From: a virus
IMG/VR virus record: IMGVR_UViG_3300048014_000353
Coordinates: 1-64,000 of that record
Length of the DNA stretch: 64,000 nt
Reading direction: 5' to 3' (one strand)
The position numbers and the translations under genes are program-made. How positions within the stretch are numbered: the stretch's first letter is position 1; each line of letters opens with the position of its first letter. Shown one piece after another: positions 3,988 through 29,559 of this stretch. The notes under the pieces were generated by a model. The model ran no database searches. It had not been told where the DNA came from and was given only the letters and a program-made list of their open reading frames with translations.

Positions 3988-5041
3988 CCTGAAGAGCGCC
4001 AAGTCCATTGAGCGCTGGGAGGATACGCTCACCCAGCACCTGTTCCCCGCGCTCGGTCGGCATCTCATTCACGAGCTTCGCTACGCCCACATCGAGAAGG
4101 CCAAGGACGGTTGGGCGCGACGCATGAACGCGGACCCCAAGAAGATCCGGATGTACATCGACTCCCGCGGCAAGGAGCGGAAGGGTAGGGAGCGCATCTC
4201 GCCACGGACCGCCAACGGGTGGCTCTCGATCCTCCGGGTCATCACCAAGCAGATGACCGCCGAGTACGAGCTCGGCGTCGACCCGGCCGCCGCGGTCCGT
4301 GACTTCGACACGTCGACGTCGCCCACCTACACCGACGAGGAGCCGAACTCGCTCCTTCCCAACGTCGCGCACGACTTCCTCGCCACGATGAAGCGGGAGC
4401 ACCCCGGGCACTACGCGATGACCCTCGTCGGGTTTCTCACCGGGCTGCGCCCCTCGTCGCTCCGCCCCCTCCGTCGGAAGGAGGACGTGCTCTGGGACGA
4501 GAACGCGATCCTCGTCCGCCGGTCGAACGCGATGGGCAATGCCATCATGGAGAAGACGAAGACCGGAAAGCGTCAGCGCATCGAGCTGCCGCCGCACGTG
4601 CTCGAAGTCCTCCGGTGGCACCTCGATCGCCTGGACGACGCAGCCGCGCGCAAGAACGCGACCGCGACTGACCGGGCGATGGCGGAGAGCGCCTACCTGT
4701 TCCCGAGCGAGACCGGCGGGATGCGATCGCGCTCTGTGCTCGACAAGCCGTTCCGGTCGGTCGCAACCGCGCTCGACCTGAAGTTCAAGGTGACCCCCAA
4801 GGGGATGCGCCGCACGTTCCAAGATCTCGCGCGCGCCGCCGGCGTCGCCGACCTCGTCACGCGCTCCATCAGCGGTCACGCCACCGAGACCATGCAGCAG
4901 CACTACTCGACCGTCGCCGCCGACGAGATGCGGAACGGCATCGGGAAGATTCTGACCCTCGCTCTTGGCCCAAAAACGGGGTCCACAAAGGGTGCGAACG
5001 GGGGTGCGAAGAATTCGGAGACCACGAACGATGAAGCCTAA
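3692..5041 (+). CDS. int: Tyrosine recombinase/integrase
   Basis: TGLRPSS (catalytic R), PKGMRRTF (H/KxxR), SGHATETMQQHY (H and catalytic Y); GGAG ribosome-binding site before the ATG. Confidence 0.92.
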   Translation: MAEWVKRWGYEVSAKRVREGIYRLRSGGYLVRGRLTNEETGRRKTVIKALPDASLAEATGYRVEAMSVVRERVRGTQPETMRLDAYATSLFERKVKNGDLKSAKSIERWEDTLTQHLFPALGRHLIHELRYAHIEKAKDGWARRMNADPKKIRMYIDSRGKERKGRERISPRTANGWLSILRVITKQMTAEYELGVDPAAAVRDFDTSTSPTYTDEEPNSLLPNVAHDFLATMKREHPGHYAMTLVGFLTGLRPSSLRPLRRKEDVLWDENAILVRRSNAMGNAIMEKTKTGKRQRIELPPHVLEVLRWHLDRLDDAAARKNATATDRAMAESAYLFPSETGGMRSRSVLDKPFRSVATALDLKFKVTPKGMRRTFQDLARAAGVADLVTRSISGHATETMQQHYSTVAADEMRNGIGKILTLALGPKTGSTKGANGGAKNSETTNDEA

Positions 5042-5206
5042 AACAAGAGCGGGAGAAGGGATTCGAACCCTCGACGTCCACCTTGGCAAGGTGGCACTAG
5101 ACAACGGAACACTGGGAAAATCGCGGGAAAGCTCACGAAAGGAGCGACCAGGAGACCCCCAAAGTGACCCAGAGAGACGGGTCAGGGGTGCGATCAGGGG
5201 TGCGAA
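4990..5206. other. attP region: tRNA-derived core flanked by arm-type direct repeats
   Basis: GGGTGCGAACGGGGGTGCGAA (4990-5010) and CAGGGGTGCGATCAGGGGTGCGAA (5183-5206) flank the tRNA fragment; genes on both sides are phage-like. Confidence 0.75.
5047..5098 (-). tRNA. 3' half of tRNA-Gly(GCC), not a full tRNA (att core)
   Basis: Reverse complement AGTGCCACCTTGCCAAGGTGGACGTCGAGGGTTCGAATCCCTTCTCCCGCTC contains the GCC anticodon arm, T-arm and 3' acceptor strand; the 5' acceptor strand and D-arm are absent. Confidence 0.85.
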
Positions 5207-5263
5207 GGTGGGTACCGCTCGTGCCGCTGGAAGCCGGCTCCGGACGCCCTTTCGGGGAGTCCC

Positions 5264-5503
5264 GTGTCCGCCGCCTACATCGTCGCCGCAGTGCTCGCGT
5301 GCGCGGCGTTCGGGTGCACCGAGACCGTCGTGGTGTCGGCGGACGGGGATGCGATCGGCGCGTACTGCGAGGAGTGGAACGGGCCTACCCCCGTGGATTG
5401 TCTCCGCACATGTACGGACGGGTTCCGGGTGCTGAAGGTTGCGATCGGGAGGGGGCCGAGTCCCCAGGTCTTGCGGTGCCTGGGGGATGGGGGCGCCAGG
5501 TGA
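5264..5503 (+). CDS. Small putative lipoprotein
   Basis: Hydrophobic signal ending AAFGC (lipobox-like), followed by additional Cys residues. Confidence 0.45.
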   Translation: MSAAYIVAAVLACAAFGCTETVVVSADGDAIGAYCEEWNGPTPVDCLRTCTDGFRVLKVAIGRGPSPQVLRCLGDGGAR

Positions 5504-6222
5504 GCCCCGTCGCTCGCCTCGCGACTCTGCGCGAGCGGCCAATCCTCTTCAGCGCGTCGATGGTGAGAGCCATCCGCGCCGGGACCAAGACGCAGACCCG
5601 ACGGATCGTTCGCGACCAGGCCTCCGTCTCCGACGTTGCGGGCGGGGGTCTCGAGCCGACCGTCTGGTGGCCGCGCGACGGAGACCTCTTGCTGCCGTGC
5701 CCCTACGGGGCGTCCGGCGATCGACTCTGGGTGAAGGAGGCGCACGCCTTCCTCGACGGCGACTTCCGCCCCACGACGATGACGGACCGGGGCCACGTGC
5801 AGGTCAGCTACCGCGCCGACCACGCCGACCCCGTCCACGGGGACGGACCCGACAAGCTCCGCTGGCGCCCATCCATCTACATGCCCCGATGGGCTTCGCG
5901 TTTCACGCTCGAAGTCACCGACGTCCGCGTCGAGCGGCTTCAGGAGATCACGGAGGAGGACGCCCGAGCGGAGGGGGTCGCGCCCCGCGTCTTCGAGTCC
6001 TGGACGTGGTGCAACCGCGCACGCAAGCAGACCTTCGAGACGTTCGTGCCCGAGTGCGGTGACCCGGGTGCCGAGCTCCTCTACCACGACCGCCGGGAGA
6101 CCCGCTCGGCTCGGGAAGGTTTCTACTCGCTCTGGGAGACGATCAACGGCGAGCGCGCGTCTTGGGCGTCCAATCCGTGGGTGTGGGTCGTCTCGTTCAC
6201 GCGGATGGGGACGTCGCAGTGA
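5500..6222 (+). CDS. Phage ASCH/PUA-like protein
   Basis: ERPILFSASMVRAI..GTKTQTRR, CPYG..GDRLWVKE, WRPSIYMPRWASRFTLEVTDVRVERLQEITEEDARAEG, NPWVWVVSF; GTG start at 5500. Confidence 0.8.
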   Translation: MSPVARLATLRERPILFSASMVRAIRAGTKTQTRRIVRDQASVSDVAGGGLEPTVWWPRDGDLLLPCPYGASGDRLWVKEAHAFLDGDFRPTTMTDRGHVQVSYRADHADPVHGDGPDKLRWRPSIYMPRWASRFTLEVTDVRVERLQEITEEDARAEGVAPRVFESWTWCNRARKQTFETFVPECGDPGAELLYHDRRETRSAREGFYSLWETINGERASWASNPWVWVVSFTRMGTSQ

Positions 6223-6518
6223 GCGGCCTTCCGATCGCGTGGGAGATGCTCCGCCGGGAGGTGAACGGACTCCCCGGCTTCGTGGGCCAGCCCGGGGTTC
6301 GGGATCCGGATGGCCTCTGCGAGGCCTTCGACGGAGCCGGGTACGACGGCACCGGAAACTGCGACTCGGACGGGCACTACCTCTGCGTCGAGTGCTCACA
6401 CCTTTCGCCCGAGGCGCCCCGGTTCGAGGAGAACTACGGCCGCGCGGGGTCGGGCCGACCGGTCGGCCCTGGATCGAAAATGCGCGCGCGTGGGCCGCGA
6501 GCGTCCATGCGCGCGTGA
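6219..6518 (+). CDS. Hypothetical Cys-rich protein
   Basis: GTGA start/stop coupling with the upstream gene; CDSDGHYLCVEC motif. Confidence 0.5.
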   Translation: MSGLPIAWEMLRREVNGLPGFVGQPGVRDPDGLCEAFDGAGYDGTGNCDSDGHYLCVECSHLSPEAPRFEENYGRAGSGRPVGPGSKMRARGPRASMRA

Positions 6519-6536
6519 CGGGGAAGGAGGCGGTCG

Positions 6537-7499
6537 ATGGGTGAAGGTCGCGTCGAGGTCATTCGGGTCGGCGAGGTGGTCAAGCACCCGAACGCCGACT
6601 CTCTCAGCATCACCAAGGTCCACGGCGGCTACCCGTGCTGTTTTCGCACGGGAGACTTTGTGGAAGGGGATCTCGCGGTCTACATCCCCGTCGACTCGAT
6701 CGTCCCCGAGGGGGAGCGCTTTGCGTTCCTGGGTGAGCACCGGCGCATTCGCGCCAAGCGTCTGCGCGGAGTGTTCTCAATGGGGCTCCTGACGAAGGGG
6801 GAGCCTGGGTGGGTCGCGGGGCAGGACGTTGCCTCCGAGCTGGGAATCGTCCGGTACACGCCTCCGGACGATGAGGCGGTGGGTGCGAGCGATGAGCCCG
6901 ACCCCGGCCTGTTGCCGGTCTACGACGTCGAGGGTCTTCGTCGCTGGCCTGACGTTCTCGTCGAGGACGAGATCGTCCAGATCACCGAGAAGCTCCATGG
7001 CGAGTCGGCGCGTTTCGTTCACGATGGCGAGCGTCTTTGGGTTGGGTCCCGTACCCGGTTCAAGAAAGACCTTCCCGCCGTGAAGTGGTGGCAGGCCGCG
7101 CATGCGTACGGCCTCACGGCCAAGCTCGCCGAGGCACCGCATGTTGTTTTCTACGGAGAGACGCACGGCTACACCGGCGGCTTCTCGTACGGACAGAGCG
7201 GCGGATCGGTCGGGCTCCGGTTCTTCGATGCGATCGACGTGAAGTCGCGGACGTGGCTCGACGTGGGCGACTTCCACGCGCTCTGCCGGCGGTTGGGTTT
7301 GCCGACGGTCCCGGTCCTGTACACCGGTCCGTGGACGCGCGAGATCTCGCGGCTCGCCGAGGGGAATTCGACTCTCGACGCCGGCCACGTGCGCGAGGGC
7401 TTCGTCGTGCGCCCGATGAAGGAGCGTTACGACGCCATGGGGCCGGGGCGCGTGATCCTCAAGCTGCACGGCGAGGGCTTTCTCGCGCGCACGAAGTGA
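6537..7499 (+). CDS. RNA ligase, DRB0094 (Rnl5) family
   Basis: N-terminal OB-like HPNADSL and RIRAKRLRGVFSMGLL; motif I TEKLHGES; REGFVVRP; C-terminal ILKLHGEGFL. Confidence 0.88.
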   Translation: MGEGRVEVIRVGEVVKHPNADSLSITKVHGGYPCCFRTGDFVEGDLAVYIPVDSIVPEGERFAFLGEHRRIRAKRLRGVFSMGLLTKGEPGWVAGQDVASELGIVRYTPPDDEAVGASDEPDPGLLPVYDVEGLRRWPDVLVEDEIVQITEKLHGESARFVHDGERLWVGSRTRFKKDLPAVKWWQAAHAYGLTAKLAEAPHVVFYGETHGYTGGFSYGQSGGSVGLRFFDAIDVKSRTWLDVGDFHALCRRLGLPTVPVLYTGPWTREISRLAEGNSTLDAGHVREGFVVRPMKERYDAMGPGRVILKLHGEGFLARTK

Positions 7500-7514
7500 C
7501 TCGAAAACGAGTCG
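7497..7514. promoter_or_regulatory. 18-bp operator copy
   Basis: TGACTCGAAAACGAGTCG overlapping the ligase stop codon. Confidence 0.75.
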
Positions 7515-7933
7515 TACGGTTTTGACTCTGGAGGTCAATGATGATGGGTCGTCGGAGCGAAGCCATGAGCAAACGAAACGCGAACCTGAAGACCGCATGG
7601 ATCGGCCGCCGGCTCTTCGGGGTCCAGTGGGCTCCGGACGGCAAGTGGGACTGGACGTCGAACGTCGGCGATCGGCACTCGGACTATGCGTCCGTCGCGC
7701 TCTGTACGAGCGGCCCCATGCGCTTCCTTCGGATCACGCTCGGGCCGGTGGCGCTCCTCGTTTCGAGCCGACGAGGCGCCTAATGCGACCTCGCCTGCGG
7801 TCCTTGGTGGAGTGGCCGATCATCGCTTGGTGGTGGGACCACGGGCCCGCGCCTCTATGCCCGAAGTGGTGCACGTGCCGCGGCGCGCACGACATGATTG
7901 CGCGAGGTCCTTCGCCTCGCGCCGGGGAGTAGA

Positions 7934-8284
7934 ATGGACCTGAACATGTCGCGTTGGCCTTGGCGTACCTGGGACCTCCTTCAACAGATCGAGGCAGCTT
8001 CCGACGGTCGGAGCCCGGAGCAGCGCTCCGGCGTCGCGGAGCTCCGAGGGCTCGGCGTGTCGGGCGCAGACCCGCGCATCCGAGCGTTCGAGCGTCGCGG
8101 GTTCGTGGTCTGCGAGGGGTTCGGGGAGATCGTCGGCGGGGACGGCTACGGACTCACGAGGGCCGACGGCTCGCTGGTCGAGCGACCCATCTGGGTCATC
8201 ACGGCCGCTGGCCGCGCCGCGCTCCACTCGAGCGTCGGGCAGAAAGCGAAACGCGACGCCGGAATCGTCATCGATTCGCCCTAG
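7934..8284 (+). CDS. Hypothetical protein
   Basis: ATG preceded by GGGGAG; coding-like composition. Confidence 0.45.
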   Translation: MDLNMSRWPWRTWDLLQQIEAASDGRSPEQRSGVAELRGLGVSGADPRIRAFERRGFVVCEGFGEIVGGDGYGLTRADGSLVERPIWVITAAGRAALHSSVGQKAKRDAGIVIDSP

Positions 8285-8320
8285 CCGTTACTCCTTGGCG
8301 CGTGTCAGCGTCCGAGTCGC

Positions 8321-9937
8321 GTGGCTGTCCCCGTCCCGAGTGCGCTGTCGAAGCTCGACACGAAGGTCCTGTCCTCGAAGGAGCAGGTCGATCTGGCCGT
8401 GCGCGCCAAGGCCGGCGACGTTGCCGCGCGCGACAAGCTGATCCAGCACAACCTGCGCTTCGTCTGGAAGATCTCCCAGAAGTACATCCGACGGCGTCGG
8501 ACGACAGAGATCGACGACCTCGTGAGCGAGGGGGTGCTCGGCCTGATGACGGCCATCGACCGGTTCGAACCCGAGCGCGGTTTCGCCTTCATCACGTACG
8601 CGAGCAACTGGGTCCGTCACCATATCAGCCGGCGCGCCAGCTACGATCGCAGCATGGCGTACGTGCCCGTGCACGCGAGCGATGCGGCGCGCAACGTCGC
8701 CACCCGTCGCCACGAGCTCTTCGCCTTGGGGCTCGAGCCCGAGGAGGAGGAAGAGATTCTCGTCAAGGAATTCGGCGCGAAGGCCGTGCTGGTCGAGCGC
8801 AAGACCTCCGTGAACGGCGTGTCGCTGGATGCGGAGATGGGGGAGGACGGGGGTCTCACGCTCTACGACGTGCTTCGACTGGAGGGCGACGGGGGCGACG
8901 CCATCGCGGACAAAGACCTCGACGACCACATTCGAGCGGTCATCGAGCGCGTACGACGCCGCACGCACGACGAGCGCAAGCTCGCCATCCTCGACCGTCG
9001 ACTGCTCGGGAGGGAGACGCTGGCCGACATCGCCCAAACATTCGGGTGCTCACGCGAGCGAATCCGACAGCTGGAGGCCGAGGTGGTCGCGCTCCTGAAG
9101 CGCGAGATCCAAGCCTCCATTCCCGAAGAAGCGCACGATCGCGCGCGACCGCGACCGCGGCGGAAGACGGAGAGATCCAAAGATCGGGTGCGGGACTCGA
9201 TCACCCGCGCTATCTCGCAGCGGGGTGTTGCCGAGGTGCCCATTCCGGCGGTGCGATCGGTGGAGGTCGCGGCCAATGGACTGCGAGTCGGCCAAGTGGT
9301 GGGGGCCGTACCCAAGGACAGTTCCACGTTCCGTCGAAATTTACCGGTTCAGTGGTCTGACAAGGCGCCCGCTACCTCCGTCGTACGCGCTGCGCCGTCC
9401 CCGGCGCCCCCCGAACCGTGTGCCTCACCCAACGAGACGCTGCCCATGCCGAAGAAGAAGAGAGTCCTCAACCCGAGCACCCAGGAGATCGCGCGCAGGT
9501 ACGAAGCGGGCGAAGACCCGCGCGAGATTGCCAAGGTGATGGGAAAGCCCGAAGCGTCGGTGCGCGCCAAGGTCTCCGTTCTCCGGAGAAGCGGCATCAT
9601 TCATCGAACCCCGAAGCGACCGAAGGCCGATGCCGTGCCCGTCGCAACTCCTACCGCGAAGCCCGCGGCCGTCCCGAAGAATGGATTGACGTGGCTCGAT
9701 GCCCAGTCGGGCGACGTTCTGGGCGACGCGACGTCCATCGTGACCACCCTACGAGGTCCGAAGAAGTCGCCGGCACCCGTGCCGCTCGCGCAGGAGCCGT
9801 CGTTGGAAGGGACGACACCTGAAACGCAAGGCGGCGATCCCTTCGTGGCCCAGCTGCTTAAGCGACGCGAGGATCTGCAGCGGAAGATCGAGTGGATCGA
9901 TCGCGCCATCGAAGCGCTCCGGATGGCGACGCTGTGA
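8321..9937 (+). CDS. Sigma-70 family sigma factor with a long C-terminal extension (extra HTH and coiled coil)
   Basis: Region 2 (ARDKLIQHNLRFVWKISQKY, DDLVSEGVLGLMTAIDRFEPERGFAFITYASNWVR) and region 4 (ETLADIAQTFGCSRERIRQLE). Confidence 0.88.
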   Translation: MAVPVPSALSKLDTKVLSSKEQVDLAVRAKAGDVAARDKLIQHNLRFVWKISQKYIRRRRTTEIDDLVSEGVLGLMTAIDRFEPERGFAFITYASNWVRHHISRRASYDRSMAYVPVHASDAARNVATRRHELFALGLEPEEEEEILVKEFGAKAVLVERKTSVNGVSLDAEMGEDGGLTLYDVLRLEGDGGDAIADKDLDDHIRAVIERVRRRTHDERKLAILDRRLLGRETLADIAQTFGCSRERIRQLEAEVVALLKREIQASIPEEAHDRARPRPRRKTERSKDRVRDSITRAISQRGVAEVPIPAVRSVEVAANGLRVGQVVGAVPKDSSTFRRNLPVQWSDKAPATSVVRAAPSPAPPEPCASPNETLPMPKKKRVLNPSTQEIARRYEAGEDPREIAKVMGKPEASVRAKVSVLRRSGIIHRTPKRPKADAVPVATPTAKPAAVPKNGLTWLDAQSGDVLGDATSIVTTLRGPKKSPAPVPLAQEPSLEGTTPETQGGDPFVAQLLKRREDLQRKIEWIDRAIEALRMATL

Positions 9938-9939
9938 CC

Positions 9940-11310
9940 GATTGAATCCCCGCGTGTGCGGGGGACGGCGAGGGTCGTGACCATGTCGTGAGCCAATGCA
10001 TGGCCCATCCCCGTGCGTACGGGAAGCACGCCGGCGCGTGCAGATCGCCACCTTGCCGTCGCGGCCTTATCCCCGTGCGTACGGGGAGCACTACGAGGCC
10101 GAGGCCGCTGGTCCGGGTAGGTATGGCCTATCCCCGTGCGTACGGGGAGCACGACGTCGACTACCCCGCGGTTCCAGGCGTCGTCGGCCTATCCCCGTGC
10201 GTACGGGGAGCACACTTCGAGGGGGAGCTGTCCGATCAGGACAAGCGGCCTATCCCCGTGCGTACGGGGAGCACGACGTCTCGGACTTGAGGCGGCGGCT
10301 GGGGGGCGGCCTATCCCCGTGCGTACGGGGAGCACGTCGAGCTTCCCGCAACGGATCCAATCGTTGCGGCCTATCCCCGTGCGTACGGGGAGCACGTCAC
10401 GGAGCGCTGTGCCACACACGTTCATGACGGCCTATCCCCGTGCGTACGGGGAGCACGAGGCCCGCGTAGCGCGCGGACGCGATGAAGGCGGCCTATCCCC
10501 GTGCGTACGGGGAGGACTCGCACCGCTGCAACTCCGTCTTGAGCACCGGCGGCCTATCCCCGTGCGTACGGGGAGCACAGCCCGACGAGGCGCTCGTCGT
10601 TCCGACGATGCGGCCTATCCCGGTGCGTACGGGAAGCACAGCCGTTGAGCACGCCGATCGGCGACAGCCGCCGGCCTATCCCCGTGCGTACGGGGAGCAC
10701 GTGGCGGTCGGCCGCTGAGCGCGTGAGATGGTCGGCCTATCCCCGTGCGTACGGGGAGCACAAGACCTCATTCCGGCGCAGTGCGCTACGAGGCGGCCTA
10801 TCCCCGTGCGTACGGGGAGCACTGCAGATCCATCTGTTTGACGACGACTACTTCCGGCCTATCCCCGTGCGTACGGGGAGCACTCGTCGGCACGACGCCG
10901 CTGCCGACGACGCGCCGGCCTATCCCCGTGCGTACGGGGAGCACTCTTGAAGCCCGGCGCACTTCTCGTCCTCTCGCGGCCTATCCCCGTGCGTACGGGG
11001 AGCACGGCGTGAAGCGGAGCTCCGCGGCGGCAGACCACGGCCTATCCCCGTGCGTACGGGGAGCACCGTCAATGTTGAATGGCATGTTCGTGAACTTCCG
11101 GCCTATCCCCGTGCGTACGGGGAGCACGACGACGAGAACGCCGATGGAGCAGGAGATGACGGCCTATCCCCGTGCGTACGGGGAGCACTGCGCGCGCGCC
11201 ACCATCTGCTCAAGCGCTACCGGCCTATCCCCGTGCGTACGGGGAGCACTTGGGGGCGACGATCAGGAACGTGCGTGCGTACGGCCTATCCCCGTGCGTA
11301 CGGGGAGCAC
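9940..11310 (-). CRISPR. Type I-E CRISPR array: 23 repeats (22 near-consensus plus 1 degenerate terminal) and 22 spacers
   Basis: 29-bp repeat GTGCTCCCCGTACGCACGGGGATAGGCCG (minus strand) at about 61-bp period; repeats start at 9940 (degenerate), 10001, 10062 ... 11221, 11282. Spacers are 32 nt (one is 31). Repeat variants cluster at the leader-distal end. Confidence 0.98.
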
Positions 11311-11354
11311 TCTTGGAAACCATTCACGATTTCGTCAAAAACAGCATTGAAGTG
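11311..11354 (-). promoter_or_regulatory. CRISPR leader (only 44 bp between the cas2 stop and the first repeat)
   Basis: AT-richer stretch abutting the consensus end of the array. Confidence 0.7.
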
Positions 11355-11657
11355 TCAAGGAGCATGCGGACCTGTCGGATGTCCACGTCGTCGTACGAGA
11401 AACAAGCCTTCGACTTCAACCGACTCGTAAGCCGAGGCCCCTTCGGAGCGAAACACGAACCCCTGCTCGTTGCGGGCGGAATGGACCATCGCGCACGTCC
11501 CCTGCCGGCGAGCCGCACGGACGGCTTCCCATAGGCGGTCCCGCACGCGTGCCGAGAGGCTTCCTGCGAAGACGCCTGGAGCGACCTCGATCATCCACCG
11601 CGCCAGGTTTCCACGAACGGACGGACGAACGCGACGCACCACGATGACGACCATCAT
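11355..11657 (-). CDS. cas2: Type I-E Cas2
   Basis: MMVVIVV...SVRGNLARWMIEVAPGVFAGSLSARVRDRLWE...NEQGF; start overlaps the cas1 stop. Confidence 0.93.
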   Translation of the reverse strand: MMVVIVVRRVRPSVRGNLARWMIEVAPGVFAGSLSARVRDRLWEAVRAARRQGTCAMVHSARNEQGFVFRSEGASAYESVEVEGLFLVRRRGHPTGPHAP

Positions 11658-12592
11658 GGATCGTCGCTCTCCTCCTCCACGCTCGTCGCAAAGTTCTGGG
11701 CTCCTGGGACCTCCCCTTCGGGTCCCCAAAGTAAGACGCGCGCCTCCGACGCTCTCTCGTCGAGCATTCGATCGCCAATCAAGTGCTGGATGTCGGGAAT
11801 GATGCGGTCCAAGAGACCACTTGCGTAGAACCGATCCCGACTCGCACATCGCACGAGCGAATCTAGATTCGAGGCGCTTCGATTCTCGGCGACGACACGA
11901 AACGCGAGCGGTAGAACCATCTCGATCTTGTAGAGGTCGGCGATGTCGTACACGAAGGCGAGCGACTTGCCGGTGTGGAGAAAGCCAAGACTTGGACTGA
12001 ATCCGGTGGCGACGATCACCGAATGGCAGACGCCGTACAGGCAGGCATTCGCCGCGGAGAGCGCCCGATTGACAGGATCGGCGTGCTCCCAAGCCCCGTT
12101 TAGCTTGCGGCCCTTCCACGCGACGCCCGTTTCGCGTCCCACCTTGGCGTAGGCCTCTCGAACACGTACGCCCTCGCGCCCACGTGCCTGTTCGATGCTC
12201 GTCGCTCCGAGCGACTCGCCAAACCTTCGCTCGTACATGCGTCGAACGACGTCCAGACGGCGGCCGGGATCCGCCCATGCCTTCACTTGCGCGAGCAGAT
12301 TGGTCGACCGGCGGGTTTCGCCCGTCCCGCTCGCGTAGAAGCGGACTCCCTTTTCCCCCGTCCAGACGACCGAGCAGCCATTGTCCGCGATCGACATCAT
12401 GGCCGCGTGCGTGATCGACGTGCCCGGCCCCAGCATCAGCACGCAAAGAGACGAGACGGGAACTCTCGTCTCTCCGTTCACATCGATCACCACGAGCGCA
12501 TGGTTCTCCCGTTCGATCTTTGCGTGCTCGAAGTAGGCAAAGGACCAGCTCTCCGACACGCGCGGAAGGGACTGGAGATCAACGCGACTCAC
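11654..12592 (-). CDS. cas1: Type I-E Cas1, catalytic residues intact
   Basis: LMLGPGTSITHAAM, RGREGVRVR (E), GFLHTG (H), FVYDIADLYK (D); GTG start at 12592. Confidence 0.96.
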   Translation of the reverse strand: MSRVDLQSLPRVSESWSFAYFEHAKIERENHALVVIDVNGETRVPVSSLCVLMLGPGTSITHAAMMSIADNGCSVVWTGEKGVRFYASGTGETRRSTNLLAQVKAWADPGRRLDVVRRMYERRFGESLGATSIEQARGREGVRVREAYAKVGRETGVAWKGRKLNGAWEHADPVNRALSAANACLYGVCHSVIVATGFSPSLGFLHTGKSLAFVYDIADLYKIEMVLPLAFRVVAENRSASNLDSLVRCASRDRFYASGLLDRIIPDIQHLIGDRMLDERASEARVLLWGPEGEVPGAQNFATSVEEESDDP

Positions 12593-13224
12593 GCCGCCGC
12601 TCGAGCCACGAGCAAGAGCCCGCACCCATAGGACTTCCCGCGGCCGATCCCGTTCTCCAGCGCCTTGCGCATCGTGCCCGTGTCCACGACCCGCAGCACC
12701 CCATCGAAGCACACGGGGTGCTCGACGTGAGAGGGCGATGGCCCACTCCCCCACTCTTCTTCGCGCGAGCACGGCGCCGCGAGCGCCGACTCGACCTCAA
12801 AGCCGCTTCGCGCTCCGGCGCGCGCGAGCCACGCCCCCAGAGCGTCGTCGCCGCGAAGGGCCACGCGCCGGGTCGAGCGCGAAACCGACTTCACGACGTT
12901 GCCGACCAAGCGGAAGCGGAACCGCTGCCCCGTGCCCACGGCCTCGAGCACCGGCGCGAGCGACTTGACCTCCGGAGGCGCCGCGAACACGGCGCGCGGC
13001 CAGCCGCTCCAATCGGGTTCGGCTTTTGATTGGACCAGCAGCGTCAGGCGGCCGTCGCGCTCGACCGTCAACCGATGCAGGATGCGCGCGCGAGATCGCG
13101 CGTCGGGGACCCGTTCGACGCCGGGAAAGAGACGCCAGAGCGCCCCGTGCATCACGAGAGGGCTGCGGACCCACGGCCAGACCTCCGAGGACGCGGGGTT
13201 GAGGAAGATGCGAGAGAGGTTCAT
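12589..13224 (-). CDS. cas6e: Cas6e (Cse3) crRNA endonuclease
   Basis: MNLSRIFLN...MHGAL...FRFRLVGN...FDGVLRV..., G-rich loop GIGRGKSYGCGLL. Confidence 0.95.
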   Translation of the reverse strand: MNLSRIFLNPASSEVWPWVRSPLVMHGALWRLFPGVERVPDARSRARILHRLTVERDGRLTLLVQSKAEPDWSGWPRAVFAAPPEVKSLAPVLEAVGTGQRFRFRLVGNVVKSVSRSTRRVALRGDDALGAWLARAGARSGFEVESALAAPCSREEEWGSGPSPSHVEHPVCFDGVLRVVDTGTMRKALENGIGRGKSYGCGLLLVARAAA

Positions 13225-13898
13225 GCGATTCTCCGTGCGGCGGGCGGGTCGGTCCAGACGGTCTCCACGTACCGGCGCCGGAAGACCCGCGGTTGGAACG
13301 TGACCGGGACGTCGTCGCGCGGTTGGCCGCGCTCGGGCGTCGACTCGATCAGAAGACGAAGCGTGTCGTCGCCGGCGCGCTCGGCGCGCGGCCACTTCCG
13401 CACGCACTCGCTCGCCGACGCCTGCTCCAAGGATTCGAAGATGGGGCACGCCGGAACGCAGGCCTTGCGGCCCAGGCTCAGCGGCCACACCGGCGAACGG
13501 AGCGCATCCTTCACGCGCACAAGGAGCGCCTCGTCGTGCTCGAGCGCGACGAGGAAGCTCGCGTCGGCGAGGTAGTAGCGCTCCGTGGGGACGGTGTGCT
13601 CCGCCCGCCGCGTCTTGGCGTCGTAGACGGCATGGGAGAGGTCCCCGAACGCGCCACCTCCGGTCGTGTGGTAGTCTCGTTCGATCGCCCCCTCGCGGTC
13701 GACACGCACGGTCATCGCGCCCTCGGCGAGCTGCCCGATGGTCGTCCGGTCGTCGCGCGTGACCCCCATCGCTGCGCAAAGGAGACCAACAACCCCCGAC
13801 TTGGTCGGTTCGCGCTCGGTTGTGAGGATCGAAAATCGCGCCTGCGATCCCCAACTCTGGAACGGTCCCTCGAGTCGTAGGAGCAGCGTGGCGTTCAC
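13221..13898 (-). CDS. cas5e: Cas5e (CasD), no HNH fusion
   Basis: LLLRLEGPFQSWG...PTKSGVVGLLCAAMG...ERYYLADASF...LSLGRKACVP; about 225 aa. Confidence 0.95.
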   Translation of the reverse strand: MNATLLLRLEGPFQSWGSQARFSILTTEREPTKSGVVGLLCAAMGVTRDDRTTIGQLAEGAMTVRVDREGAIERDYHTTGGGAFGDLSHAVYDAKTRRAEHTVPTERYYLADASFLVALEHDEALLVRVKDALRSPVWPLSLGRKACVPACPIFESLEQASASECVRKWPRAERAGDDTLRLLIESTPERGQPRDDVPVTFQPRVFRRRYVETVWTDPPAARRIA

Positions 13899-15019
13899 TT
13901 GTCCTCGTTCTTGTGGAGAAGCGAACGAACGCGGTTGAGCGCGGTCTCGATGACCGCGTCGACGCTCGGGACCATGCGAATCCCCACGTCGTCCCGCGTG
14001 GCATCGCGGTCCTGGCAAGCCGCCGCGAATTCGTTGATGCGCGTCCCGTACATCGTGTGGACGCGCGCCCAGTACCGCTCGAGCGCGAGGATCGACTCGC
14101 CCACGATGTCGTGTTCGCGCGGGCGCACGGGCTGCGCGAAGGCGTTGGTGAGCGCGAAAGGTTGGCCTTCGTGGGCAACGACGAGCACGTAGCTCGGCGG
14201 GTTGTGCGCGGCGAAGCTGGTCTGTTTGCCCGTGGGGATCGCGTGGACCATCGCGCGCAGCCACGCCTCCGCCGTGGGCTCGACGAGCTTGTCGAATTGA
14301 AGGTTCGTGCGGAGCAGCGGCACGTTCATCGTCGCGTACCGGTACTGGCACGAGGCCACGAACTGCGACGAGTCCATGTGCGCGCTGCCCGTCTCGCCCT
14401 TGGGCTGCAGATCGTCCACGGCCGTGAAGAAGTCGAAGTCGTTGTCGGCCGCGTGGGTCGAGAGGCTCTGCGCCGTCTGGACGGCGCCGGCGACGCCCCA
14501 GTCGTCTCCCTCGGCGATCATGCGCCCGAATGCGGCGACGTCCGGCGTGCGCGTTGCGTCCTTGAGGAGCGCCTGCACGCGCTCGGTGACGGTCTTCGGA
14601 ATCGTCTTCTTGTCGATCCCTGTCCACGATTCGTGGACAACCCCGGCGATGCTGCGGATGCGGTCCTTGGGGAGGAACACCAGCGTCGCGGTCTTCTGCG
14701 TCTTCTCGTCGATCTTCAGCCCCGCCGCGGCGATGACGCGGGCGGCGACCTCGAGCGCGACGGCCGGATCGTGGTCGGCCGCCAAGATCTCGGCGACCGC
14801 ATGCGGGATGCGCTTGGTGCGGACCCCGAGCGCCGAGGTCTCCAACTCGCTCTCGGCGGCGAAGTGGTTGCGGATGGCGCGCTTCGAGCACTGGCTCGAG
14901 ATCCGCGCGCGCCGCGCACCGGCGAAGACGGCGTCCTTGGGAGCGCCGTTGTCGTCGCGGTTGAGGTTCGACGGCGCGAAGTTCTGCAAGATGTGAACGT
15001 CGATGCTGAGCGTATTCAT
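13895..15019 (-). CDS. cas7e: Cas7e (CasC)
   Basis: IDVHILQNFAPSNLNRDDNGAPKDAVFAGARRARISSQCSKRAIR...DFFTAVDDL. Confidence 0.97.
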   Translation of the reverse strand: MNTLSIDVHILQNFAPSNLNRDDNGAPKDAVFAGARRARISSQCSKRAIRNHFAAESELETSALGVRTKRIPHAVAEILAADHDPAVALEVAARVIAAAGLKIDEKTQKTATLVFLPKDRIRSIAGVVHESWTGIDKKTIPKTVTERVQALLKDATRTPDVAAFGRMIAEGDDWGVAGAVQTAQSLSTHAADNDFDFFTAVDDLQPKGETGSAHMDSSQFVASCQYRYATMNVPLLRTNLQFDKLVEPTAEAWLRAMVHAIPTGKQTSFAAHNPPSYVLVVAHEGQPFALTNAFAQPVRPREHDIVGESILALERYWARVHTMYGTRINEFAAACQDRDATRDDVGIRMVPSVDAVIETALNRVRSLLHKNEDK

Positions 15020-15522
15020 GTCGTCTCCTTGGTGGGTTCAGTCGGTTCAGTCGGTTCGGTCGTGGCTGTGGTGGGCGCCCAGTACTCACGCGCCCATTGC
15101 CGTCGGGTGGCGTAGTCCTCCCAGCGGAGGAGGTCGTCGAAGAGCCGGTGCCAGTCGATCGCGATGTCCTCGCCCTTCGCGAGCGTCACCGCGCGTCGAA
15201 GATGCGTCGGGAGCTCGGACCGCGGCGCAACGAGCAGCGCGGTGAAGCGCGCTTCGCTCGCGTTGCCCCCGCGCCGTTCCGCGACCCGTCGAAGGGCGGC
15301 GGCAAGCGGCGTTGAGCCGCGCTTGGGGTATTCGCCGAAAAGGCAGGCGACGAGCATCGAGACGTCCTCGACGTGCTTCGAGGCGGGGACGGGGAGGAAC
15401 GGCGAGATGACGGGGTAGAGTGCCAGCGGTTGCGTCCAGCCGCGCCGCAGCGCGCCTAGGACCGCGCCGTCGCCGCGTTCTGCGGCGCGCGCGAGCGAGT
15501 CAATCAGTCGAAACGTGTTCAT
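15016..15522 (-). CDS. cse2: Cas11e (Cse2/CasB)
   Basis: LGALRRG...EARFTALL...HLRRAVTLAKGEDIAIDWHRLFDDLLRW...RRQWAREYW. Confidence 0.92.
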   Translation of the reverse strand: MNTFRLIDSLARAAERGDGAVLGALRRGWTQPLALYPVISPFLPVPASKHVEDVSMLVACLFGEYPKRGSTPLAAALRRVAERRGGNASEARFTALLVAPRSELPTHLRRAVTLAKGEDIAIDWHRLFDDLLRWEDYATRRQWAREYWAPTTATTEPTEPTEPTKETT

Positions 15523-17002
15523 CGGTACTCTCCTCAGGCGTAGGTGTGGTGGCACCGCGCAGCTTCGAGCGCAGCACCGATTCGGCGATCGTCACGGCAC
15601 GCAAAGCCCGCACGGAAACCCCCGCGCGCGCCCGGGTCGAGAGGTGCAGAGCGCTCCGCGCGGTGGCTTCGGCGTCGCGCAGGAAGAGGTCAACGGCCGC
15701 TTCGCCCGATTCGGTCCACGCAAGCTCGAGAAGGAGCCGTTCGAACGGAGCGGCCATCGCCCCCCAGAAGAACCCGCGGCTTCGCGCGCCGTTGGCGGTC
15801 GCCTTCACCGTCTCCTTGTGCGCGCTCGGAAGCGCCGCGTGCGCCCACATCCACGTCGCGACCCGGAGCGCGTCGTCGATGACCCCGAGCCGTTCCATTG
15901 CACGCTGCAAGAGCGCGAGCTTTGCCTCGCTGGCCAGGACCTCGGGTGTGACCGGGAGGATCTCGGCGCGCGCAAGGTCGATGCGTTTCTGGTAGGAGGC
16001 GAGGCCGTAGACCGCGAGCGAGATGGCCTTGTCGGGGCCGATGATGTCGCGGACGCTCGCCACATGGTCGAGCACCGCGGGACGGCTCGTGGTGTCCGAC
16101 GAGCGAAGGATCGCGTGCGCCGAGCCCCACGCCGCGCGCTCGCGGTGAAGGCCGATCGGGCGCCACTCGTCCTTGATCTTGACGCGCGCACACATGATGT
16201 CCGGCTCCTCGTCTTCGAGCTCGTCGCCGGCGAGGTACGCGATGCCGTCCACGTAGCCTTCGGGCGACAGCGAGAGCGCCATGCGGCGCGACTGCCACGT
16301 GAGGCGATCGAGCGGCCCGTGCGCGCGGCGCGCGCACTTCGCCGTGGCCTCATGGTCGGCCTCCCAGGCGGGCACGTCCTGTCGGACGTAGGGGGAGGGG
16401 ATCACGTTGAGCATCAGGGTCTCGAACAGGTTTGCTCCTTGTGGAACGATGACGCACGAGCCGCACAGCGGCGCGGCCTTGCCTGACTCGCCCATCGTCA
16501 TGCCGCCCGGCGCGAAGGCCTGGTACGCGAGCAGCGCGCTCGCGGCGCGAGCCGGCGACAGCCGGTCGTTCTCCGCCGGGTCGCGCGCCTCGACAAAGAG
16601 GTGCACCGCCGCGCCGAAGTTGCACGTCTCCATCACGAGACGACGAACGATGTGAGGCCCCCCCTTCACACTCGAGCGCGCCGTGGACGACTGCATGAAC
16701 GGGCGCCCCTCGGCGAACAGATCGAAGCGCTCGCCCCAGCGATCGAAGTACGCGCGCACGGCGTTCTCCTCGAAGCGCCCACGCTTCCACGCGCGCTCCC
16801 ATTCCTTCTTGGAATGCGGACCTTGCAGAACGCGGTGCGCGAGCACGACAAGGAGCCGATAGACCGCGGCCGTCTCCACCGGGGAGAGTCCCGTGATCTC
16901 ACGAATTTCGTGGGCGTCCGTCAGGGACTCCACAAGGTTCACTGGCTGCTCCGTGCCTCCCTTGGATACCGTGAGCCAATGCACTCTGGAGAGGTTGAAC
17001 AT
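15500..17002 (-). CDS. cse1: Cas8e (Cse1/CasA)
   Basis: FNL..VHWLTV, ERFDLF...PFMQ, GANLFETLMLN, LTWQSRRMAL; about 500 aa with no HNH extension. Confidence 0.92.
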   Translation of the reverse strand: MFNLSRVHWLTVSKGGTEQPVNLVESLTDAHEIREITGLSPVETAAVYRLLVVLAHRVLQGPHSKKEWERAWKRGRFEENAVRAYFDRWGERFDLFAEGRPFMQSSTARSSVKGGPHIVRRLVMETCNFGAAVHLFVEARDPAENDRLSPARAASALLAYQAFAPGGMTMGESGKAAPLCGSCVIVPQGANLFETLMLNVIPSPYVRQDVPAWEADHEATAKCARRAHGPLDRLTWQSRRMALSLSPEGYVDGIAYLAGDELEDEEPDIMCARVKIKDEWRPIGLHRERAAWGSAHAILRSSDTTSRPAVLDHVASVRDIIGPDKAISLAVYGLASYQKRIDLARAEILPVTPEVLASEAKLALLQRAMERLGVIDDALRVATWMWAHAALPSAHKETVKATANGARSRGFFWGAMAAPFERLLLELAWTESGEAAVDLFLRDAEATARSALHLSTRARAGVSVRALRAVTIAESVLRSKLRGATTPTPEESTDEHVSTD

Positions 17003-17019
17003 GCGGCCCATACTGGGCG

Positions 17020-17037: not shown

Positions 17038-17061
17038 ACAAAGAAAGTAATCAACCTCGCC

Positions 17062-17223
17062 CTAAAGGGCGAGGCTTTGTTCCTGGCATAGCTGAGGACT
17101 CGAAGAAACTATGTGCTCTCCGATACCCAACCTGACAGCCGAAACGATAGGGCCGATTACTGGACCCCTGGATGCGATGTTGCGCGCGCCGACATGGTCG
17201 GCATGAGCAACGAACCCGCATCG
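17062..17223 (-). pseudogene. tnpB: tnpB C-terminal fragment
   Basis: RCGFVAHADHVGARNIASRGPVIGPIV: last zinc-finger Cys plus the RuvC-III xADxxxAxNI motif. Confidence 0.85.
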
Positions 17224-17721
17224 TCAATGACGGTGCTTGCGCAGGTAATTGATCGCTGCCGAGAGAACGCTGACGTCATCGTGTGCGAGCCCGAGCATAC
17301 GATTGCAGTTAGCGCAAAGCAGCCCACGCACGGTGCCGCATGCGTGGCAATGATCTACCGCGCTCTTGCCCGAACCAGCGGCCAGCGGCCGAGTACATAT
17401 TCCGCACGTCTCCCCGTCGTACGCGTACGTCGAGCCGTATTTGGCAACTTGAGCGTAGCAAGCGCGGCAGATGCCGCTTCCGATCGTTCGCTCCGGCCTA
17501 GTTGGATGGCAGGCGGACGGTGGGTTGGTCTTCGCCTTTGCCAGCGAGTAGCACGATCGGCACACACCCGACCCGATGACGTGCTCGGCGCGTGCGGGGT
17601 GGCAAACGGAGCGTGCTCGGCGCGAGTCGAGCAACGCTTCGTAGCAAGGGCGACACCTTCCGCCTACGTAGTTCGGTCTGGTGGCGTGGCAGTCGGATGT
17701 CTTGGTCCTGGCGTGTCGCAT
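17224..17721 (-). CDS. Endonuclease VII-type (HNH fold) nuclease with three N-terminal Cys/His repeats
   Basis: Three CH(A/P)xR...G.CRxCY repeats, then CGIC...[35 protein letters not shown]. Confidence 0.88.
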
Positions 17722-17982
17722 CTATACGTCCGAGTCGAAGGCAAGATTGCGGATGCCGAGGTCGACGCCGAGCCAGCCTTCGGGATCGATGGGCGAGCCG
17801 TCGGGCACGTCGACGGTCACGAAGAGATAGAGCTTGCCCTTGCGGTAGACGAGGTCGGCCTGTCCTCGGACGCCGTCGAGCCGTCCGCGATGGTACGCGC
17901 CGATGGCGCACGGGACGACCATGCGTCCATCGAGAGCGAGCAGACTCACGCGATCGAGACCGTTCTTGAACGTGTAGATCCG
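17722..17982 (-). pseudogene. tnpB: tnpB internal fragment (up to RuvC-I)
   Basis: RIYTFKNGLDRVSLLALDGR...GQADLVYRKGKLYLFVTVDVP...WLGVDLGIRNLAFDSD, then TAG. Confidence 0.88.
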
Positions 17983-18036
17983 ACGGCGCTTCCTCCCCGG
18001 CCTGAAGGCCGAGGCTTCCGCGCCGGAGAATGGTGA

Positions 18037-19326
18037 TCATCGTGACGAGGGGAGGGAGGCCCATTCGGTCGGCGGCCACGTGCCGAACCGATCCCGGAAT
18101 TGAACCGCCACCGCGCTCGCCGAGCGTCCAAGTCGTCGCCCTTCGTTCCACATTGCTTCGTAGGACGCGCGCAGCGCACTCGGAGACGGGGGCAGCTGCG
18201 ACGAGCGCCGCGCGTCGGCGGCGTCGGTAACCGCGATGAGCGGCACGCCCACCACCTCTTGCACGAACGCCTCGCGCGCGACGTCTTGATCGGTCGGCGG
18301 CGTCGGCGGCGTCGGCCGGCCCATGCCGATGCCGGTGCCCGTCAACGAGTACTCGCGGTCACACGTCGGAAAGCCGTGCCGAATGGAGGAGCCGACCAGA
18401 TCGATGACGATCGCATCCAGCTTCCCAGCGCAGGCACGAAGACCGCGCCCCGTGGCCTGAAGGTACGTCGACACGTGGTCGCAGCCCTTGGCGAGGATGA
18501 TGCATCGAAGCTCCGGCACATCGATGCCCTCGGTCATCGTATCCACGTTCGTGATGACGCGCAGGCGCCCCTCGCGGAAGTCGCGCAACGCCTTCTCGCG
18601 CTCTTCGGTGGGGGTCTCCGCCGAGATGCACGCCGCGGGCACGTGGAGGCGGAAGCGCTCGGCGAGCGCTTCGGCGATCGCGACCCGCGCGCAGAACACG
18701 AAGGCCTGCGATCGGTTCGCGAGCGCGAGCCACGCCTCGACCGGGTCCTTCGCGAGATCCGCCCCGAGAAAACGCTCGGGCTGGTAGAGGCGCACGGGCA
18801 CGATGTACCCCTCGGCGAGCAGATCGCTGTAGTGAGCGGCGACGACGCTCTCCTCGAAGACGTCGCCGAGCGGGGAGCCATCGGCGCGCTCGGGCGTCGC
18901 GGTGAGTCCAACGCAGCGCACGCCAGGATATGCCTGGACGAGCTCTCGGTAGCTCTCGGCGACGTAGTGGTGGCATTCGTCAAGGACCAGAAGATCCGCC
19001 TGCGGGCGAAGGTCGCGCGCGAGCAGAGTCTGCACGGTGCCGACTTGGATGCGCGCCTCGGGATGGGCCGGATGCCCCGCCATCAACACGCCGACGTGAC
19101 CTTCGCCGAACCGCGCCGCCAAGCGCGCGGCGAGTTGCGAGACCAGGTCCCGTTGGTGCGCGACAACGAGCGCGCGCCGGCGGGGCGTGAGCAGAATGCT
19201 CGCCATCTCCGTCTTGCCCGCGCCGGTGGGCGCGATGAGACACACCGAGCGAGTCCCCGCGCTCCAGAGCGCCTCGACCTTCGCGCACGCGTCAACCTGG
19301 TAGAGGCGAGCTTCGCGCACTCCCAT
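18037..19326 (-). CDS. Superfamily 2 (DEAD/DEAH-like) phage helicase, no HD domain
   Basis: APTGAGKT, DECHH, GLTATPER, TEGIDVP, YLQATGRGLR. Confidence 0.92.
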   Translation of the reverse strand: MGVREARLYQVDACAKVEALWSAGTRSVCLIAPTGAGKTEMASILLTPRRRALVVAHQRDLVSQLAARLAARFGEGHVGVLMAGHPAHPEARIQVGTVQTLLARDLRPQADLLVLDECHHYVAESYRELVQAYPGVRCVGLTATPERADGSPLGDVFEESVVAAHYSDLLAEGYIVPVRLYQPERFLGADLAKDPVEAWLALANRSQAFVFCARVAIAEALAERFRLHVPAACISAETPTEEREKALRDFREGRLRVITNVDTMTEGIDVPELRCIILAKGCDHVSTYLQATGRGLRACAGKLDAIVIDLVGSSIRHGFPTCDREYSLTGTGIGMGRPTPPTPPTDQDVAREAFVQEVVGVPLIAVTDAADARRSSQLPPSPSALRASYEAMWNEGRRLGRSASAVAVQFRDRFGTWPPTEWASLPSSR

Positions 19327-28199: not shown

Positions 28200-29291
28200 C
28201 TAGCCGCCGAACTCGCGGAAGCTGTCCTCGACCAGGTCGACGCAGAGCTCGTCGAGCTTCGCGCGATCGGGCGCGTCGGGAAGCTTGGACGCCTTGGCGA
28301 TCGCGTCGAGCTCCGCGTTCTCGCGGTCGCTCCACTCGATGAGCTGCTCGATGGTCCAGGCGCCCCGTCGGATCGCGAGCAACTCCTCGGCGTCCGGTCG
28401 TCGCACGAGGACCTTGCCGGTCGTGAGGATCTCCCGGCACATCTTCAGTAGCCGAACGAGATGCATGCCGTGCTTGAGATCGTAGCCGAACTTGGCCTCG
28501 AGCTCCGCGCGGGCCGCATTTCGGTTCACCTTCCACGCCTGGTACTGTTCCCACTCTTTGTGCCGTGCGTGGTACTGGCGCTCCCGGTCGAGAAGCTCGA
28601 TGAAGTTGGACTCGAACCCGACCGCGCGCGCCGCGCCGATCCAGAGGTCACCGGTCGTCACGTGCATCTCGGCGATGGAGTCGGCCATCTTGTCCGCGAT
28701 GAGGAGGCGGCTCGCGGGGTCAAGGTCTCCGACGAAGTCGAGGTTCCAGTCCTTCAGCTTTTTCTCGACCGCGGATCGGGCGGCGGCGATCTGGTCCTGC
28801 GGGATGACCGTCCGCTCGGGTAGACCGAACTCTGCACGCGTCGGCGGCGCCGTCATCGGGTCGCGCAGCCAGCGCATGTGCCCTCGGATTCGGCGAAGCT
28901 GCCCGGTCGCGTACCCCGCGTAGGTGTGCTTGGCCTTCTTCGAGAGGAAAAGATCGCGCGCCGCACGCAGACGCTCACCGAGCGGCGTCATCACGAGCAC
29001 GTCGCTGTCCTCGACGAAGAGGATCTCAAGTACGTTCGGGTTGCAGTCGGCCGCGAGCTGCATGAACTTTCGCAGGCCGAAGATGGTCACGTCCGGCGAC
29101 TTCATCTCGGCCTGCTCAAAGGCGTGCGCGAAGCCGTGGAAGTAGCTGCTCGGCGGGATGGCAACGCCGCGGAAGTCTTCGTCGCTGGTCGCGATGTTGG
29201 TTCCATAAGCATGCGATCCGTGCCGTGCGAAGAACACCGTGCGGCGCGTGAGCCATGGCAGGTTTCCCGTGTACGGAATGCAGTACGTCAT
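28200..29291 (-). CDS. Nucleotidyltransferase, Pol-beta superfamily (RlaP/Nuc-transf-like)
   Basis: HGSHAYGTNIATSDEDFRGV...CNPNVLEILF...GYDLKHGMHLVRLL. Confidence 0.85.
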   Translation of the reverse strand: MTYCIPYTGNLPWLTRRTVFFARHGSHAYGTNIATSDEDFRGVAIPPSSYFHGFAHAFEQAEMKSPDVTIFGLRKFMQLAADCNPNVLEILFVEDSDVLVMTPLGERLRAARDLFLSKKAKHTYAGYATGQLRRIRGHMRWLRDPMTAPPTRAEFGLPERTVIPQDQIAAARSAVEKKLKDWNLDFVGDLDPASRLLIADKMADSIAEMHVTTGDLWIGAARAVGFESNFIELLDRERQYHARHKEWEQYQAWKVNRNAARAELEAKFGYDLKHGMHLVRLLKMCREILTTGKVLVRRPDAEELLAIRRGAWTIEQLIEWSDRENAELDAIAKASKLPDAPDRAKLDELCVDLVEDSFREFGG

Positions 29292-29559
29292 GCGGCTTTC
29301 CGTTCCTTGTCCTTCACGACCGCGACCATACGGCACTCCGCGCACGACTTGAAGCCGACCGTGACCGGGTCCCCGCAGCGGCAAACGCCGACGCGCTTCT
29401 TGTTCCAGTAGGAGCGTCGGTTGGATGCGCGTCGCGACTTGCGACACGGAGCACAGAGACACGCGTCTCCGCGCGCGATCGGGCGCGCGCCGCACTCGCA
29501 CATCCCCGCGGCCCTCATCCGAGCGCGGAACGACTTGACGTATTCGTAGGGCATCGCGC

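Follow-up and report, generated by a model that had tools for sequence, protein, structure and literature searches.

The first 64 kb of the 138,550-bp IMG/VR virus record IMGVR_UViG_3300048014_000353, a stretch of 64,000 nucleotides that is referred to here as the window, carry a CRISPR locus of type I-E that resides in the genome of a tailed phage. Our analyses identified in this locus the genes of a complete Cascade, the two adaptation genes cas1 and cas2, and an array of 22 spacers, and no cas3 gene was found in the assembled record. Based on these findings we tentatively favor the view that the phage carries an adaptation-competent type I-E system whose interference would depend on binding without a nuclease. 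A first-pass annotation, made from the sequence of the window alone, had proposed three options for the locus: silencing of the kind known as CRISPR interference (CRISPRi), borrowing of a host Cas3, or use of a non-canonical effector from the adjacent genes. Nuclease-free, CRISPRi-like action is the leading option of the three.

The cas genes were called with the Pfam and NCBIfam models for type I-E; all seven passed the curated cut-offs of both sets (Table 1), and none of the seven contains an internal stop codon. Neighboring cas genes overlap at all six junctions, by 23 nt between cas8e and cse2 and by exactly 4 nt at the other five, as would be expected of a translationally coupled operon. 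The family models of Cas1e, Cas2e and Cas6e matched over their full length. In addition, Cas1 was aligned over its whole length to a solved type I-E Cas1 (6kdv), and the conserved Glu, His and two Asp were identical. These are the residues that we take, from the literature on E. coli Cas1, to be catalytic, and the phage Cas1 is accordingly predicted to be catalytically intact. Comparison of Cas6e with Thermus thermophilus Cse3 (1wj9) showed that a His aligned with His26 and the C-terminal glycine-rich loop were both kept, and Cas8e aligned end to end with T. thermophilus CasA (4f3e).

The predicted gene content of the locus is that of type I-E in all features but the type I signature gene. Cas8e and Cse2 are present together with Cas7e, Cas5e and Cas6e, the Cas1e–Cas2e pair, and repeats and spacers of the I-E format, and the signature gene, that of the HD nuclease-helicase Cas3, was not found in the 138.5 kb of a genome that is about 82% complete. 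The effector genes belong to I-E families and not to the Csf1, Csf2 and Csf3 families which, with DinG, distinguish type IV-A. CRISPR-associated transposons (CASTs) have TniQ and TnsABC and no Cas1 or Cas2, and here both Cas1 and Cas2 are present; the neighbors of the locus are genes for a sigma factor, an RNA ligase and a helicase, and an IS605 relic. TniQ was not found, which is weak evidence because the control for the same search was also silent. No HNH domain was fused to Cas8 or Cas5, as Cas8e (503 residues) and Cas5 (225 residues) were of standard length and matched their own Pfam families only. Together, these results bore out the first-pass description of a complete Cascade with an intact Cas1 and a Cas2 and with no HNH domain on Cas5 or Cas8, and they agree with its statement that Tn7 genes are lacking, within the limit of the silent TniQ control.

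The G+C content at third codon positions of the Cascade genes (0.82–0.92) matched that of the phage core genes, and the values for cas1 and cas2 were 0.74 and 0.65, respectively; the cas1–cas2 pair may be of separate origin from the Cascade genes. A search for Cas8e homologs in a collection of 5.8 billion proteins at a strict cut-off of 1e-40 returned two relatives, the best of them being 32–34% identical, and the closest database relatives of Cas7 were 52–54% identical. The closest visible relative of the Cascade as a whole was found on a metagenome contig (L004, Ga0335073_10048322, 4400–5704), with identities of 61% for Cas5 and 51% for Cas7. In that locus the CRISPR array directly follows cas6e, and cas1 and cas2 do not lie in between.

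The search for cas3 covered the whole 138,550-bp record. The models Cas3_HD (PF18019), cas3_core (TIGR01587) and Cas3-like_C_2 (PF22590) gave no match in it, with positive controls. A custom Cas3 profile was also built from 29 Cas3 proteins of neighboring metagenome loci, those nearest to the phage system; its best match in the six-frame translation of the phage had an E-value of 1.5 and was to the Walker A motif of a helicase only. The first-pass annotation had reported no cas3 in the 64 kb and had proposed that the rest of the genome be searched for cas3 or an HD domain. The three family models and the custom profile upheld that report, and neither was found across the 138,550 bp of the approximately 82% complete genome.

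In related loci cas3 has a constant position. All 36 loci with enough upstream flank had an open reading frame (ORF) of 724–1238 residues just upstream of a cas8e of about 530 residues, and the two of these ORFs that were checked by Pfam had the HD, helicase and Cas3_C arrangement (Cas3_HD, Cas3-like_C_2 and Cas3_C). In L005 and L001, two close relatives of short length, the custom profile also detected the part of cas3 that encodes the C-terminus immediately next to cas8e, such that cas3 was directly upstream of cas8e in 38 of the 38 relatives with a visible upstream flank. This adjacency indicates that the state of the phage locus is a derived loss of cas3. Scans of IMG/VR with I-E Cas7 motifs returned only one other contig, L002 (IMGVR_UViG_3300044557_000292, 419.7 kb), which at 4997–13839 holds a complete canonical I-E locus including a 935-residue Cas3.

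In the phage, the spacer upstream of cas8e is filled by the relic of an insertion sequence (IS) of the IS605 type, which is outside the CRISPR system and is present as a single copy in the contig. A terminator-like hairpin at the IS end (17053–17076), followed by a T-run, is located 36 nt upstream of the cas8e start and may shield the cas operon from transcription that begins farther upstream. Directly past the IS is the stop codon of a RadD-like helicase gene at 18037; without the IS, that stop would be about 40 nt from the start of cas8e, with both genes on the same strand. Only ResIII, DEAD and Helicase_C domains were identified in the 429-residue helicase, the HD domain, the Cas3 core and the Cas3 C-terminal domain all being missing, and the Cas3 models of NCBIfam and PADLOC did not match it; among named models, RadD scored best. 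The typeIV_DinG model gave a weak partial match (1e-8) over 77 residues of the generic helicase C-domain. The predicted fold of the helicase (predicted local distance difference test score, 89.3) was closest to E. coli RadD (7r7j/6jde), followed by XPB, SauUSI and RecQ, and there were no Cas3 chains among the fold matches listed (ranks to 50).

The family to which this helicase belongs is large and uniform, with 1575 protein matches of about 420 residues and a conserved C-terminal tail, and at least 559 viral stretches contain a member of it. Cas7, Cas8e and Cas3 were found in none of the 80 best viral loci with this family (1.26 Mb in total, including as much as 10 kb of flanking sequence on either side). 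A query with the single protein found no close helicase relative. To judge by its family, the protein is an ordinary phage helicase, encoded by the last gene of a long minus-strand early block that hosts the cas operon insertion. Two database proteins, P0125 (a helicase, 52% identical) and P0007 (a Cas7, 49% identical), have the same record fingerprint (Logan, 6 contigs, longest 29,462 bp). It is probable that a single element carries both, and this element could be a diverged sister phage in which both genes were inherited. The possibility of a split HD nuclease was weighed for the 184-residue protein encoded upstream of the helicase and was rejected, as this protein had no family matches and its sole HD dipeptide is near the C-terminus.

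The repeat of the array reads, in the sense of the CRISPR RNA (crRNA), GTGCTCCCCGTACGCACGGGGATAGGCCG. It forms a stem of 6 bp with a loop of 4 nt, and its 3′ handle is similar to that of E. coli. The spacers are all unique and 31–33 nt in length, 20 of them being 32 nt; their number is 22, as the first-pass annotation had counted, when the degenerate terminal repeat is included and 21 when it is not. The polarity of the array was assigned from the leader, which lies opposite the degenerate distal repeats. Seventeen of the 22 repeats are identical over all 29 nt, and the variants are the three oldest repeats and two interior copies (at 10489 and 10611). In E. coli type I-E systems the final base of the repeat is derived from the protospacer-adjacent motif (PAM). 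The last base of the three oldest repeats of the phage array (window 10001–10152) is A, C and A, not G, which would fit a PAM-derived final base together with "slipped" or non-consensus acquisitions early in the history of the array. The uniformity of the repeats, the variants at the old end and the unique spacers are hallmarks of a growing array.

Mapping of the spacers, a check that had been proposed in the first-pass annotation, yielded imperfect matches for two spacers and no exact protospacers in cultured phages or plasmids, the plasmid matches being repeat-to-repeat. Searches of IMG/VR with exact or wobble patterns of spacers S04 and S01 returned nothing. Spacer S14 matched the large-terminase genes of one uncultured phage group at 26 of 32 positions; the match lies in the reading frame of a conserved peptide, and its flank on the PAM side is AGG. 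In 200 shuffles a score of 26 was never attained (the highest, 25, came up once), and a codon-aware S14 pattern found nothing better than 26/32. The large terminase of the matched group is about 40% identical to that of this phage, whose own terminase gene is without the S14 site. Spacer S20 matched an IS1-family transposase gene in the phage's own genome, also at 26 of 32 positions, with perfect seed positions 1–8 and a GAG flank, and in a peptide-level scan of the spacers this was the sole match above noise. Both AGG and GAG are among the PAMs accepted by E. coli type I-E. Together, the S14 and S20 matches point to candidate targets in mobile elements (rival phages and transposon-bearing DNA) and not in host housekeeping genes. 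A 24/32 match of spacer S10 was discarded, as its flank was not a PAM and the match was at chance level.

Table 1. Features of the type I-E CRISPR locus and its upstream flank, in window coordinates.
Feature	Position	Strand	Evidence and remarks
Degenerate terminal (oldest) repeat, 23rd copy	9940..9968	-	in register (61-nt period); 16/28 consensus positions (our own count)
CRISPR array, 22 repeats of 29 nt	10001..11310	-	0 expected by chance; newest spacer at the 11310 end
Leader, A/T-richer, 44 nt between cas2 stop and first repeat	11311..11354	-	sequence read
cas2 (Cas2e, 100 aa)	11355..11657	-	PF09707 5.7e-28; TIGR01873 76 bits, cut-off 33
cas1 (Cas1e, 312 aa)	11654..12592	-	TIGR03638 345 bits, cut-off 216; 6kdv Cas1 E = 7e-84
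cas6e (211 aa)	12589..13224	-	PF08798 2.7e-40; TIGR01907 above cut-off
cas5e (225 aa)	13221..13898	-	PF09704 2.7e-44; TIGR01868 161 bits
cas7e (374 aa)	13895..15019	-	PF09344 3e-104; TIGR01869 261 bits
cse2/cas11 (168 aa)	15016..15522	-	PF09485, TIGR02548 above cut-off; GAGGAG before ATG
cas8e/cse1 (503 aa; alternative start 17002)	15500..17011	-	PF09481 4.7e-80; TIGR02547 130 bits
IS605-type insertion, ~1 kb (tnpB relic; endonuclease-VII-like ORF 17224-17721)	17047..18035	-	sequence read
RadD-like superfamily 2 helicase (429 aa)	18037..19326	-	ResIII + Helicase_C; phrog_16 1e-72; RadD model 1.5e-30

In the system as we tentatively envisage it, Cas6e would process the array transcript and Cascade would assemble on the resulting crRNAs. 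The complex would then bind PAM-flanked protospacers in rival mobile elements of the same host, such as other phages and transposon-bearing DNA, and stable R-loop binding would block the transcription or replication of the rival DNA with no cutting, and Cas1–Cas2 would keep adding spacers by naive adaptation. E. coli Cascade without Cas3 interferes by binding, and naive adaptation in E. coli has no need for Cas3. Action by binding only is supported indirectly by the intact, conserved and apparently coupled operon, by the composition that matches the phage, by the near-self target of S20 and by the published precedents that are discussed below. The near-self target counts in favor of this view because it should be easier to tolerate when there is no nuclease.

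Several points weigh against such an adapting, binding-only system. The record is linear and only about 82% complete, and cas3 could be located on the unseen ~30 kb. Exact protospacers were found neither in cultured phages and plasmids nor in IMG/VR, and a preference for promoters was not indicated. The IS hairpin 36 nt 5′ of cas8e may reduce expression of the operon. In addition, randomly acquired spacers repress weakly in E. coli CRISPRi, and the benefit of a silencer that adapts is therefore not obvious.

Other readings of the locus differ in what they put in the place of Cas3. It is unlikely, in our estimation, that Cas3 is provided in trans by a type I-E host, whose enzyme would be recruited to degrade rival DNA or host defense islands while the phage itself contributes Cascade, the crRNAs and adaptation. 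Cas3 recruitment runs via Cas8e, and in favor of this reading the phage Cas8e is full length and aligns end to end with a solved Cse1. There are also type I-E carriers among the myxobacteria (bioRxiv 10.64898/2026.09.14.751636), and the use in trans of parts of other systems has a precedent in type IV-A systems that use host I-E adaptation proteins (PMC11656645). However, no host system close to identity with that of the phage is apparent, as the highest identities to database proteins are 34% for Cas8e and 54% for Cas7. The phage repeat was present within 3 mismatches in none of 401 sampled Myxococcota genomes, and the IS1 copies in these genomes were only 65–73% identical. The S20 target, being near-self, would also be risky with an active Cas3. 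The first-pass suggestion of a borrowed host Cas3 is thus weakened by the divergent Cas8e and Cas7 and by the lack of a repeat match in the Myxococcota genomes. We consider it quite unlikely that the system is of the ordinary, complete I-E kind and that its cas3 was displaced and lies on a stretch of the genome that was not assembled, although the CheckV estimate of 82%, the linear record without terminal repeats and the phage-type ORFs that run off both ends leave room for such a gene, and the IS insertion upstream of cas8e shows that the locus has been disturbed. The adjacency of cas3 to cas8e in 38 of 38 related loci argues against displacement, as does the lack of cas3 for at least 9.9 kb on one side of the locus and at least 121 kb on the other. 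As the IS is single copy, there is no sign of recombination between copies of it, and with the IS removed the ~40 nt from the helicase stop to the cas8e start are too short to hold a remnant of cas3. If cas3 were on the missing part of the genome, the system would be ordinary.

A further reading is that the locus is a recently truncated, decaying capture, picked up without cas3 or having lost it, with no present interference function. Seven intact and apparently coupled genes, 17 of 22 repeats that are identical and a composition that matches the phage all make this improbable, even with cas3 missing, the IS and its terminator-like hairpin 36 nt upstream of cas8e, and no exact protospacers found. 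Seven kilobases of dead weight would be unlikely to persist in a phage, and the probable relative represented by P0007 and P0125, with a divergence of about 50% in Cas7 and helicase, hints at long retention. More doubtful still is a replacement of Cas3 as the partner of Cascade by the RadD-like helicase, possibly together with the endonuclease-VII-like protein borne by the IS, in the manner of the helicase of the phage type I-C variant and of DinG in type IV-A. In favor of this idea, removal of the IS would place the end of the helicase gene about 40 nt upstream of cas8e, in the same orientation; phages carrying "a helicase protein instead of Cas3" have been reported (Al-Shayeb 2020, PMC7162821); and the fingerprint shared by P0125 and P0007 suggests a second element with both genes. 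Yet the protein has no HD domain, Cas3 core or Cas3 C-terminal domain, and its Walker A motif alone aligns to the Cas3 profile; its fold is nearest to those of RadD, XPB and RecQ. It also belongs to a common, stand-alone phage family whose 80 best viral loci are without Cas7, Cas8e and Cas3, the IS and its terminator-like hairpin now separate it from cas8e, and the co-occurrence of P0007 and P0125 can be explained by shared phage ancestry. These findings disfavor the first-pass option of a non-canonical effector from the adjacent genes. We give little credence to Cascade binding being coupled to the upstream helicase in place of Cas3 within a self-sufficient, spacer-acquiring, nuclease-free I-E system. 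If such coupling were real, it would be an independent, phage-side reinvention of the logic of type IV-A and of the I-C variant of huge phages.

The locus resembles the canonical I-E systems of E. coli K-12, Thermobifida fusca and Thermus thermophilus in having the same seven genes in the order cas8e to cas2, followed by the leader and array, and in having a 29-nt hairpin repeat ending GGGGAT...CCG and 32-nt spacers. Unlike those systems, it is borne by a phage, cas3 is absent from the locus and from the 138.5 kb, and its Cas8e is at most 34% identical to known proteins. The type I-F system of Vibrio phage ICP1 is similar in that it is of type I, is encoded by a phage, includes adaptation genes and an array, and is directed against rival or host elements. 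However, the ICP1 system has a Cas2/3 nuclease-helicase and cuts its targets (Seed 2013; PMC10161043), and the present system is of subtype I-E and without Cas3 on the assembled genome.

Phage CRISPR systems that lack an interference nuclease, an adaptation module or both have already been described (PMC7162821; review, PMC11656645), and among them is a type I-C variant of huge phages in which a helicase replaces Cas3 (Al-Shayeb 2020, PMC7162821). As in those nuclease-lacking huge-phage systems (PMC7162821), a phage Cascade occurs here without Cas3 and with a non-Cas3 helicase alongside. They are without Cas1 and Cas2 and have a dedicated, conserved helicase, whereas this phage has adaptation genes and a helicase of a generic phage family; it differs further from the I-C variant in its subtype, I-E, and in a genome of <200 kb. 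Almost all phage CRISPR systems are without Cas1, Cas2 and Cas4 (Al-Shayeb 2020, PMC7162821). As a working analogy we propose type IV-A, in which crRNA-guided, nuclease-free interference is used in plasmid competition (PMC11656645, PMC11519345) and which the phage system would resemble in acting against competing mobile elements. Type IV-A differs in having a Csf effector and a requirement for DinG, and is usually without adaptation genes, whereas the effector here consists of Cas8e, Cse2 and Cas7e. The Tn7-like CASTs (I-F, I-B and I-E variants) have likewise kept Cascade and lost Cas3, but their arrays are short, they are without Cas1 and Cas2, and they have TniQ and TnsABC, which were not found here, with a silent control in the case of TniQ.

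CRISPR systems encoded by phages of <200 kb are rare. What sets the present case apart is the combination of type I-E, a full adaptation module and a 22-spacer array in a phage of <200 kb. If our tentative interpretation of adaptation coupled with binding-only interference is correct, the locus would provide a natural example of DNA targeting that is heritable and updatable and involves no cutting. It would bear on conflict among mobile elements and on the usefulness of adaptation for an effector that does not cleave, and would make a divergent, compact I-E Cascade available for programmable binding.

The contig is a genuine tailed phage, a large uncultured myovirus from soil or peat. Genes for the large terminase, portal, prohead protease, two major head proteins, tail sheath, baseplate and fibers were identified at 72–115 kb, and the window itself has genes for DnaB, an SNF2 helicase, a sigma factor, an RNA ligase and an integrase. 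The nearest terminase in IMG/VR was 44% identical to that of the phage. The record is linear without terminal repeats and was estimated by CheckV to be 82% complete. PHROG-matching ORFs run off both contig ends and, together with the absence of terminal repeats, indicate that the genome extends past the assembled part; the full genome is estimated at ~170 kb. The CRISPR locus has PHROG-type phage genes on both of its sides and is positioned at the junction of two converging gene blocks. On the array side, the gene of a 538-residue sigma-70-type factor (window 8321–9937, + strand), with regions 2 and 4 and an extra C-terminal stretch resembling a helix-turn-helix, converges on the old end of the array.

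Contigs in other data also carried sequences of this phage or of close strains. A helicase at least 90% identical to that of the phage was present on a 7,905-bp contig (P0247) in a second assembly, and its Cas8e and Cas7 were seen on 3–4 contigs; the phage, or close strains of it, is present in more than one assembly. Elsewhere in the window, an RNA ligase is encoded at 6537–7499 (+) and an RlaP-type protein (RNA repair pathway, pol-beta family) at 28200–29501 (-), a pair that suggests functions in RNA or tRNA repair.

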